NCBI GenBank assembly: GCA_964393525.1
Contig: CAYMTV010000001.1
Location: 82,178 to 144,691 of the forward strand
Direction: 5' to 3'
Origin: an uncultured Gammaproteobacteria bacterium
Lineage (GTDB): Bacteria > Patescibacteriota > Microgenomatia > Daviesbacterales > UBA10151
DNA: 62,514 bases
Part shown: positions 18,276 through 19,466 of the stretch, one piece after another
Position numbering within the stretch: the stretch's first letter is position 1
How the letters are laid out: each line of letters begins with the position of its first letter
The notes under the pieces: generated by a model
Told to the model about the DNA's origin: nothing
Seen by the model: only the letters and a program-made list of their open reading frames with translations
The model's database searches: none
Program-made: the position numbers and the translations under genes

Positions 18276-19466
18276 CTAAGGTATGTGCCAGTAGAGGGTA
18301 ACGACCCCATTTTTGTGATCTACAAAAACTCCTTTTCCAACAGTGTTTGTTAAGTAGCAAGCCCTGCTATCTTGGGTGGCATAAGCAGTCCCATCCTCTG
18401 CGGCGTAAATGGAAGAGCCGTAGTGATCTGCAATATCCAACCCCGAGTGTGTCCCCAAAAAGTAAACCTGGCCAAAACGGGTTGTTATATCTCCATTATT
18501 ACAAGTTCCTCCTTGAGAACAGTCATTGCTGGAATAGCTTGAGGTGGGTTTGGAAAATCTGCCTGAATCAATATAGGGTTTGGGGTCAACCTTATTACTT
18601 GATCCGACAATAATCCCATTTTCAACATGAGCCGGAGTCATGACCTCAAAATGCAGATGCGGCCCGGTTGAGCAACCGGTATTCCCAACCGAGGCAATCC
18701 GCTCGCCTTTTTTAACATCCCCCAATTTTACTCCTTTACTCCCTAAAGCTCTGGCAATGGAGTCTGCATCCGCCCGAAGCCTTGCTAAAATCTCCTGGAA
18801 TTTTGCTTCATTATTTTTAGTAACTGCTAAAAGCTCTTCTTTTTCTTTTTTTTGAGCTTCAAGTTGAATCTCATAAACCTCTAAGTCTTTTTTTAGTTTC
18901 TGCTGTTGGATCTGACGGACTTGTTTATCCTGCTTTTGGTCATTGTAGGTAGTTTTGGTCGCCTGAAGCTGGTATAAAACTTTTTTGTCATTGGCCTGGG
19001 CTACTTGAATATACTTAATTCTCTCCAAAAGATCGGAAAAGCCGTGCGAAGAAAAAATTAAATCTATGGTGGAGTAATTTCCAAATTTATAGGTGCTGAC
19101 AATTCGGTTTAGTAAAACCTCCGAAATTGAATCAACAGAGGCAGAAATTCGGGTGATCCTGCCCGAAAGTTCCTCAATTTGCTTATCTAGTTTGGTGATC
19201 TGGAATTTTGTCTCGTCTATCTTTAACTCGGTTAATTTATTTTGGGTGTCAATATATTTTAGCTGAGAGTTTAGGGTTTTTTCCTGAGCCTGAGTTTGTG
19301 CAAGCTGCTCTTCAACCCGCTTAATCTCTTCCCTTTTTTCCCTAAGCGCTACGTCAAGCTCGTCTTCGGATTGAGCAAAACTTATCTTTGGAAAAGTAAG
19401 TACAGCAATTAATAAAGTTGTAAGTATTAGTCTAAACAGGAATTTAGGGAAGGCGTTTTTGCTCAT
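18276..19466 (-). CDS. Coiled-coil + circularly permuted M23 peptidase (FtsEX-associated murein hydrolase candidate)
   Basis: Signal peptide, long coiled coil, then [10 protein letters not shown] followed by HSGLD...TLYWH; directly downstream of ftsX. Confidence 0.85.
   Translation of the reverse strand: [396 protein letters not shown]

Follow-up and report, generated by a model that had tools for sequence, protein, structure and literature searches.

In a 62,514-nucleotide stretch of contig CAYMTV010000001.1 (hereafter, the window), the open reading frame (ORF) 18276-19466 encodes a coiled-coil protein with a metallopeptidase domain of the M23 (LytM) family, next to the genes of the division complex FtsEX. 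Sequence comparisons confirm that this domain is circularly permuted: the half that carries the HxH motif precedes the half that carries the WP lead, HxxxD and YxH. By the same comparisons, the protein is homologous to M23 peptidases and topologically distinct from them, and we consider it probable that it is a directly catalytic, FtsEX-gated peptidoglycan endopeptidase. M23/LytM domains are among the best-studied cell wall hydrolases and regulators, and the order of their motifs is treated as a definition of the family.

The Pfam Peptidase_M23 profile (PF01551) matches the native protein in two stretches (68.1 bits), with residues 249-277 aligned to positions 60-89 of the 96-position profile. 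In phmmer comparisons with PDB chains, residues 325-395 correspond to positions 28-91 of 9gy1_A and residues 251-276 to positions 102-127, that is, in the reversed order, which is also seen against the Gp16 and zoocin A chains. The DipM models of NCBIfam place residues 311-394 early in the domain and residues 241-276 late. The first-pass annotation of the window, which had proposed the permutation, predicted that the Peptidase_M23 model would give two partial matches in reversed order and no single collinear match in the native order, and this is what we obtained. The other M23 protein of the window, named there as an internal control, indeed shows the normal order in a single stretch (Table 1).

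When residues 305-396 were joined in silico ahead of residues 243-304, the resulting sequence produced one collinear Pfam match (profile positions 2-89 of 96, 80.5 bits, E = 1.1e-22), and the best E value against PDB went from 2.8e-10 for the native order to 1.5e-16. Over its full length, the re-ordered sequence can be aligned with chains such as LytM, lysostaphin, ShyA, and zoocin A, and the PDB alignments are gap-free through the artificial junction, where it aligns with TVYGHVHSFNVSVGQ. Because these alignments run through the junction without gaps, the break point can be placed within the short loop that follows the catalytic histidine of the Y.H motif.

In M23 peptidases, Hx3D and HxH are the zinc-binding and catalytic motifs, with the first histidine of HxH being catalytic and the second one a zinc ligand; an extra catalytic histidine (His260 of LytM) is located about 30 residues before HxH, and an oxyanion tyrosine precedes Hx3D (PMC9662197). 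Like the M23B enzymes LytM, lysostaphin, and ShyA, the window protein has all these elements: HSGLD (residues 340-344; 18435-18449) aligns with the Hx3D of PDB M23 chains, HLH (residues 270-272; 18651-18659) aligns with STGPHLHFE of these chains, and both the extra histidine (H394, in LYWH) and the tyrosine before Hx3D (Y335) are present. Unlike these enzymes, in which the order is Y-Hx3D-Y.H-HxH, the window protein has the order HxH-Y-Hx3D-Y.H, with H394 located 122 residues after HxH in the chain instead of about 30 before it, and the collinear order is found only after the in silico re-ordering. Along the chain, the first part of the domain holds H270 and H272 and, after them, VDPKPYI; the new linker carries a CSQGGTC loop that is lineage-specific and missing in most of the family; and the second part contains GDITTRFG, Y335, HSGLD (H340 and D344), and H394, with the protein ending in ...VTLYWHIP, two residues beyond the YxH histidine. 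The positions of HLH and HSGLD and the LYWHIP terminus had been given correctly in the first-pass annotation.

The permuted form is widespread. A word-indexed search with the full-length protein yielded, among the matches listed, at least 120 homologous clusters at 60-77% identity and with lengths of about 390-410 amino acids (aa), from NCBI, JGI, ENA, and Logan assemblies; all these proteins finish with LYWH[IL]P or a close variant, and the named ones belong to Candidatus Daviesbacteria. In addition, a permuted-domain profile was compared, in an exhaustive HMMER search, with 1.84 billion representatives (50% identity), and the best 149 newly returned ones were classified. The succession of coiled coil, canonical C-terminal part (C-part), and canonical N-terminal part (N-part) was found in 104 of these 149; the same order is seen in 6 fragments, the N-part is divergent in 10 that still have the Y.H tail, 27 are canonical M23 proteins in tandem whose match spans the domain junction, and 2 short fragments match in the N-part only. 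The weakest of the matches (E ~1e-20) are still mostly permuted proteins, so the number of at least 120 permuted clusters is a lower bound. The few permuted clusters that are named by source come from Daviesbacteria, Woesebacteria, WWE3 (Katanobacteria), and candidate division CPR3. Family members are annotated as 'hypothetical protein', 'peptidoglycan DD-metalloendopeptidase family protein', 'CwlO-like', or 'M23ase beta-sheet core domain-containing protein'.

The claim that both zinc motifs are intact holds across the family: over 120 permuted representatives, all five catalytic residues are 98-100% conserved (H270 and H272, 100% each; H340, 98%; D344, 99%; H394, 99%), and Y335, the likely oxyanion tyrosine, is invariant among close relatives. 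The end of the chain is also constrained, being located exactly two residues after the last histidine in 93 of 119 members and within four residues in 109. In P0235, P0254, and P0256, a linker of only 5-6 residues leads from ...YL to the WP lead, so the termini of the canonical M23 domain must be spatial neighbors; without such adjacency, a circular permutant would not be viable on geometric grounds. The suggestion that the four cysteines of the window protein staple the fold did not survive: these residues are invariant or nearly so only in close Daviesbacteria relatives, and their frequencies in the permuted family (36% for C265, 17% for C370, and about 2% for the two linker cysteines) are so low that the permuted fold cannot depend on them. 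We therefore rejected cysteine staples as a family feature and regard the four cysteines as a lineage-specific decoration. In P0235 (211 aa) and P0256 (260 aa), the permuted domain occurs without the coiled coil, after a signal or membrane anchor and a low-complexity linker that is rich in either Pro or Thr/Glu/Lys; thus, the permuted domain behaves as an independent module.

In neighbor-joining trees, 110 of the 122 non-redundant permuted sequences form one clade without canonical members, and in a tree built from the coiled coil only, the best split unites 119 permuted and 8 canonical sequences. Together, these trees are suggestive of a likely single origin for the bulk of the permuted sequences. 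The 12 sequences outside the main clade (P0290, P0319, P0346, P0348, P0254, P0284, P0297, P0304, P0305, P0327, P0353, and L055) either branched off early or arose by a second permutation, independent of the first. Four of these bear a cysteine-containing extension of 18-22 residues after the final Y.H, for example, ...YAHMLPPSGGGHSHCNSSYWL. In what would be the simplest and likely route to the permuted form, the domain became duplicated in tandem, the first N-part was then lost, and a stop codon arose after the second Y.H. The tandem canonical M23 proteins mentioned above were considered as direct intermediates and rejected: they are devoid of the coiled coil, and the named ones belong to KSB1 or Deferribacteres, which are unrelated phyla.

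At the N-terminus, the protein contains a putative signal peptide or membrane anchor, with a basic n-region, a hydrophobic core, and an SFA-Q site, which AlphaFold2 models as a helix at residues 5-23. It is followed by a coiled coil of about 210 residues that is modeled as two helices (34-128 and 143-242). This region is matched by the EnvC model of NCBIfam (residues 41-234, E = 1.3e-11, below the equivalog cut-off), by EnvC in PDB (8hd0_E, over residues 28-240), and by Pfam CC_PcsB (28.2 bits against a cut-off of 27), and the motif of its terminal helix, LL..T.N.E..(F/Y)Q..L, is kept across 90 representatives. In the full-length AlphaFold2 model (44 full-length homologues; mean predicted local distance difference test score, pLDDT, 84), the two long helices run straight into a beta-rich domain. 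For the domain alone (residues 238-396, 14 sequences), pLDDT was 90.1 and the predicted template modeling (TM) score was 0.87, and this model is consistent with one compact domain. The best Foldseek match of the full-length model was EnvC in the V. cholerae FtsE/FtsX/EnvC complex (8tzl_E), with further matches to the EnvC-FtsX structure 6tpi, RipC in the M. tuberculosis FtsEX complex (8idc/8jia), RipA, and PcsB (4cgk). Compared with BFVD, the domain model weakly matches A0A510E7V3, L0CQF1 (internal virion protein of Synechococcus phage P60), and H6WFX6 (cyanophage S-TIM5). These matches are collinear and cover about 160 columns of virion proteins of about 1000 aa (query-normalized TM-score 0.36-0.48, best E = 1.6e-4); M23 modules, in tandem or permuted, may be present in these virion proteins.

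The position of the gene downstream of ftsEX, which the first-pass annotation had pointed out, is evident in the window: ftsE, ftsX, and the permuted M23 gene follow one another on one strand and are spaced by 7 and 23 nucleotides (nt), respectively. This arrangement recurs in relatives. We retrieved loci from GTDB species genomes with the FtsX of the window, and 34 of these encode FtsX with at least 37% identity. A gene for a coiled-coil protein starts 0-120 nt downstream of ftsX in all 34 loci. In 29, its product is a permuted M23 protein (including one that lacks HxH, described below, and one cut by the contig end), in 4, it contains a Peptidase_C39_2-like domain, and in 1, the gene is cut before the C-terminal domain; a canonical-order M23 domain after ftsX was found in none of the 34. 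A survey of the genes after ftsX had been recommended along with the original observation, and its outcome bears out the association of the permuted M23 gene with ftsX in related genomes. The C39_2-like genes (L012:4889-6124, L015:4876-6105, L023:4883-6109, and L033:4858-6066) belong to Daviesbacteria-like or Microgenomates genomes, and the domain is of the papain type. The catalytic module of the FtsEX partner thus appears to be swapped, M23 for Peptidase_C39_2-like, on the same coiled coil. In Candidatus Daviesbacteria GW2011_GWA2_42_7 (L011:4864-5913), the protein lacks about 45 residues that comprise the HxH motif and the VDPKPY segment; the junction reads ...GMGSTG directly followed by FRGYPGD..., and the DNA contains no Ns. 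The loss is either natural, which would make this a catalytically dead variant, or a local deletion in the assembly. Several of the GTDB records that encode an FtsX 60-71% identical to that of the window together with the Daviesbacteria-type permuted M23 (L001-L003, L005, L008-L010, L013, and others) are titled 'uncultured Gammaproteobacteria bacterium isolate binchicken_...' or 'SRP...', which look like placeholder or wrong taxonomic labels.

Outside this set, canonical-order counterparts exist. A metagenome scan seeded with permuted proteins of the WWE3 type detected 13 permuted genes (in 10 cases, ftsX can be seen immediately upstream), along with 3 divergent permuted genes and 62 canonical-order genes with the same coiled coil, most of which are located directly after ftsX. 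The canonical-order proteins (for example, the Portnoybacteria/Patescibacteria and human-gut metagenome types) resemble the window protein in gene position and length (about 400 aa) but differ in that the N-part precedes the C-part and the chain ends at ...P..YL rather than two residues after Y.H. The motif at the end of the helix, LL..TK..E..YQ.LL, is common to both forms; given this shared motif and the shared position after ftsX, we treat the permuted and canonical-order genes as counterparts at the same locus. One canonical-order type, L063, is named Candidatus Portnoybacteria or Patescibacteria group, which indicates that other lineages of the candidate phyla radiation (CPR) retain the normal M23 order. 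HxxxD, YxH, and HxH are kept in all 62 canonical-order genes, and so, of the earlier claim that intact zinc motifs set the permuted protein apart from EnvC, the intactness stands, but it is a property of the canonical-order relatives as well. In four of the canonical-order loci (L071, L074, L096, and L112), two consecutive coiled-coil-M23 genes, which are tandem paralogues, follow ftsX.

The junction between the coiled coil and the domain differs between the two forms, as the first-pass annotation had anticipated in stating that the permutation shifts the point at which the coiled coil meets the catalytic domain. Counted from the end of the coiled-coil model, the domain begins after 0-9 residues in 12 of the 13 permuted loci and after 18 residues in the remaining one, compared with 21-101 residues (median 40) in the canonical-order loci. 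In the alignments, the coiled-coil helix is attached to the strand after the catalytic His394 rather than to the distal N-terminal lead, and the new linker of the permuted form connects loops 4 and 1 of M23. These two loops line the substrate groove of M23 peptidases (PMC9662197). The tight constraint on both junctions argues for some functional role.

Among the known FtsEX partners, those of monoderm bacteria, namely, PcsB of S. pneumoniae, CwlO of B. subtilis, and RipC of M. tuberculosis, are themselves hydrolases. These proteins, in which a coiled coil is combined with an active C-terminal hydrolase domain controlled directly by FtsEX, are probably the closest functional analogy for the window protein. 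They differ from it in that their domains are CHAP or NlpC/P60 cysteine peptidases rather than zinc-dependent M23, and none is reported to be permuted. The coiled coil of EnvC engages a pair of FtsX periplasmic domains. A restraining arm of 50 residues (222-278) blocks the groove of the catalytically dead LytM domain of EnvC until ATP-driven movement frees this domain, which then activates the amidases AmiA and AmiB (PMC7668044). EnvC (E. coli, V. cholerae, and P. aeruginosa) and the window protein are alike in being secreted, or apparently so, in the coiled-coil hairpin of similar length followed by an M23/LytM domain, and in the coupling, or apparent coupling, to FtsEX. However, the LytM domain of EnvC has the canonical order and lacks the catalytic residues, whereas the domain of the window protein is permuted and retains all of them, and its second helix enters the domain within about four residues, beside the catalytic histidine. 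For natural circular permutation of a cell wall peptidase domain, there is a precedent in NlpC/P60 families, with the order of catalytic residues swapped in YaeF/poxvirus G6R and LRAT-like proteins (Anantharaman and Aravind 2003, as cited in PMC6403190). The precedent concerns a papain-like fold with Cys/His chemistry and has no FtsEX context.

Taken together with the gene context, the homology of the parts suggests how the protein could function as an endopeptidase, the role that we consider probable. In a Daviesbacteria-like CPR bacterium, the gene product would act outside the cytoplasm as the partner of the FtsEX division complex, with the coiled-coil hairpin docking on the extracellular domain of FtsX. 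The chain would enter the domain at the strand after Y.H, pass through HxH and VDPxxY[IL] into a short linker, and continue via WP/KP...G.ITxxFG, the tyrosine, and HxxxD to the stop two residues past the Y.H histidine, so that the two halves would together form a single active site of the normal M23 type. It would be the enzyme, rather than an amidase activated by it, that cuts peptide cross-links, with the activity gated by ATP-driven movements of FtsEX that are relayed by the coiled coil. A directly catalytic role is favored because the catalytic residues are intact and constrained, and because the domain is swapped for a cysteine-peptidase-like module in sister genomes. Given that the second helix is joined within about four residues to the strand next to His394 and the C-terminus lies two residues after this histidine, helix movement is probably coupled to the active site more directly than in the canonical forms.

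Several results weigh against this reading. The domain model yielded no Foldseek match to PDB below E = 0.9 and no M23 entry, not even a partial one. Foldseek depends on the sequence order, and therefore, this null result neither confirms nor refutes an M23 fold; it fits a connectivity that is absent from PDB, without independently confirming the domain model as M23-like. The HxH segment has been lost in the Daviesbacteria GW2011_GWA2_42_7 protein, so activity would not be universal in the permuted family. The expected duplication intermediate (coiled coil-N-C-N-C) was not found among the best 149 representatives from the profile search. A scan for promoters and terminators produced no signal exceeding the shuffled background, and the operon is accordingly proposed from gene spacing only.

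The direct catalytic role leaves the significance of the permutation itself to be considered. It might be a functionally neutral topological variant that works exactly like the canonical-order FtsEX partners, with unchanged activation, and we take this as a serious if tentative possibility. It is in line with the abundance of canonical-order homologues that share the coiled coil, the gene position, and the intact motifs, with the terminal helix motif common to both forms, and with the existence of the permuted domain apart from the coiled coil; furthermore, the C39_2-like domain on the same coiled coil in four genomes suggests an interchangeable module with a coupling that is not very specific. 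Weighing against neutrality are the short helix-domain spacing that distinguishes the permuted loci from the canonical ones and the C-terminus fixed two residues past the catalytic histidine in most members, features that suggest selection on the geometry of the junction beside the active site. At the other extreme, in line with the different activation mechanism hypothesized in the first-pass annotation, the permutation could be adaptive, with the FtsX-sensing coiled coil wired straight into the active site in a distinct mode of FtsEX mechanotransmission. ATP hydrolysis by FtsE would then toggle catalysis by shifting a catalytic residue or a C-terminal plug, with no separate restraining arm to displace. 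We deem this adaptive scenario rather unlikely; if true, such a mode would be fixed throughout a CPR super-clade.

A non-catalytic, EnvC-like function, in which the groove of the LytM domain would bind and activate a separate amidase, seems improbable. The coiled coil does resemble that of EnvC, regulation of the EnvC type is the best-studied FtsEX precedent (PMC7668044), and one relative lacks HxH. Nevertheless, the EnvC LytM domain is devoid of catalytic residues (PMC7668044), and the permuted protein shows no such degeneration: if it were not a catalyst, the near-complete conservation of its five catalytic residues in at least 120 diverged clusters would be hard to account for. The replacement by a cysteine-peptidase-like domain in sister genomes, moreover, parallels the directly catalytic PcsB, CwlO, and RipC. 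Finally, the possibility that the reversed order stems from an error of assembly or gene calling, or that the gene is a decaying pseudogene, which could be raised because the window probably comes from a metagenome-assembled genome, where chimeric joins arise, is effectively refuted, with a vanishing probability, by the recurrence of the same order, break point, and stop position in hundreds of independent NCBI, JGI, ENA, and Logan assemblies, by the permuted order in 29 GTDB species genomes, and by the intact reading frame with catalytic residues under clear purifying selection.

For FtsEX to have an active M23 partner is nothing unusual in itself. A natural, clade-wide circular permutant of M23 is, as far as we could find, previously undescribed: our literature search returned no description of a permuted M23 domain, with permutation among cell wall peptidases reported solely for the NlpC/P60 families, and the string 'permut' is absent from a 2022 review of the M23 family. 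Far from being an isolated case, the permutant appears to be the usual partner of FtsEX across much of the CPR, with sister lineages holding the canonical-order counterpart at the same locus. This amounts to a natural experiment on force transmission by FtsEX, in which one coiled coil is combined with two connectivities of the same catalytic domain. Annotation pipelines split or under-score permuted M23 proteins. To our knowledge, almost nothing is known experimentally about cell division in CPR bacteria of the Microgenomates type, for which the permuted M23 could serve as a clade marker.

Table 1. Features of the permuted M23 gene and other genes of the window
Feature	Coordinates	Strand	Details
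Permuted M23 gene	18276..19466	-	396 aa + stop; Pfam Peptidase_M23 in two stretches and CC_PcsB
N-terminal signal peptide or membrane anchor (putative)	19374..19466	-	residues 1-31 (...ISFA/QS); read from sequence
Antiparallel coiled-coil hairpin, EnvC/PcsB/RipC type	18741..19367	-	residues ~34-242; AlphaFold2 helices and EnvC/PcsB matches
First part of permuted domain (canonical C-terminal third of M23)	18555..18740	-	residues 243-304; Pfam 60-89 of 96
New linker, canonical C-terminus to canonical N-terminus	18495..18554	-	residues 305-324; alignments
Second part of permuted domain (canonical N-terminal two-thirds of M23)	18279..18494	-	residues 325-396; 9gy1_A 28-91; DipM model at 290-368
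ftsX, membrane subunit with extracellular domain	19490..20359	-	289 aa; Pfam FtsX_ECD, E = 1.7e-15, and FtsX, E = 7.7e-14
ftsE, ABC ATPase of FtsEX	20367..21053	-	228 aa; Pfam ABC_tran, E = 2.3e-37
Class-I peptide chain release factor	21542..22612	-	Pfam PCRF and RF-1; upstream, same strand
Second M23 protein, canonical motif order	14257..16734	+	825 aa; Pfam M23 in a single stretch, residues 291-392 to profile 3-90 of 96

Upstream of ftsE are a small ORF and the release factor gene, which is a possible start of the operon; the name prfB/RF2 for this gene is provisional. A promoter-like site at 22648-22620 agrees with the consensus at 10 of 12 positions, by consensus match only. Scans of the window (1-62514, 62.5 kb) for tRNA genes and Rfam families returned none at threshold, and the composition near the permuted M23 gene is unremarkable. 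The second M23 protein of the window is secreted, and at E up to 1, Pfam leaves about 290 N-terminal and about 430 C-terminal residues unmatched. An ORF of 250 aa (17485-18237, plus strand), which is oriented convergently to the permuted M23 gene, matches no Pfam family at a meaningful E value; its 3' end is located within about 40 nt of the stop codon of the permuted M23 gene.

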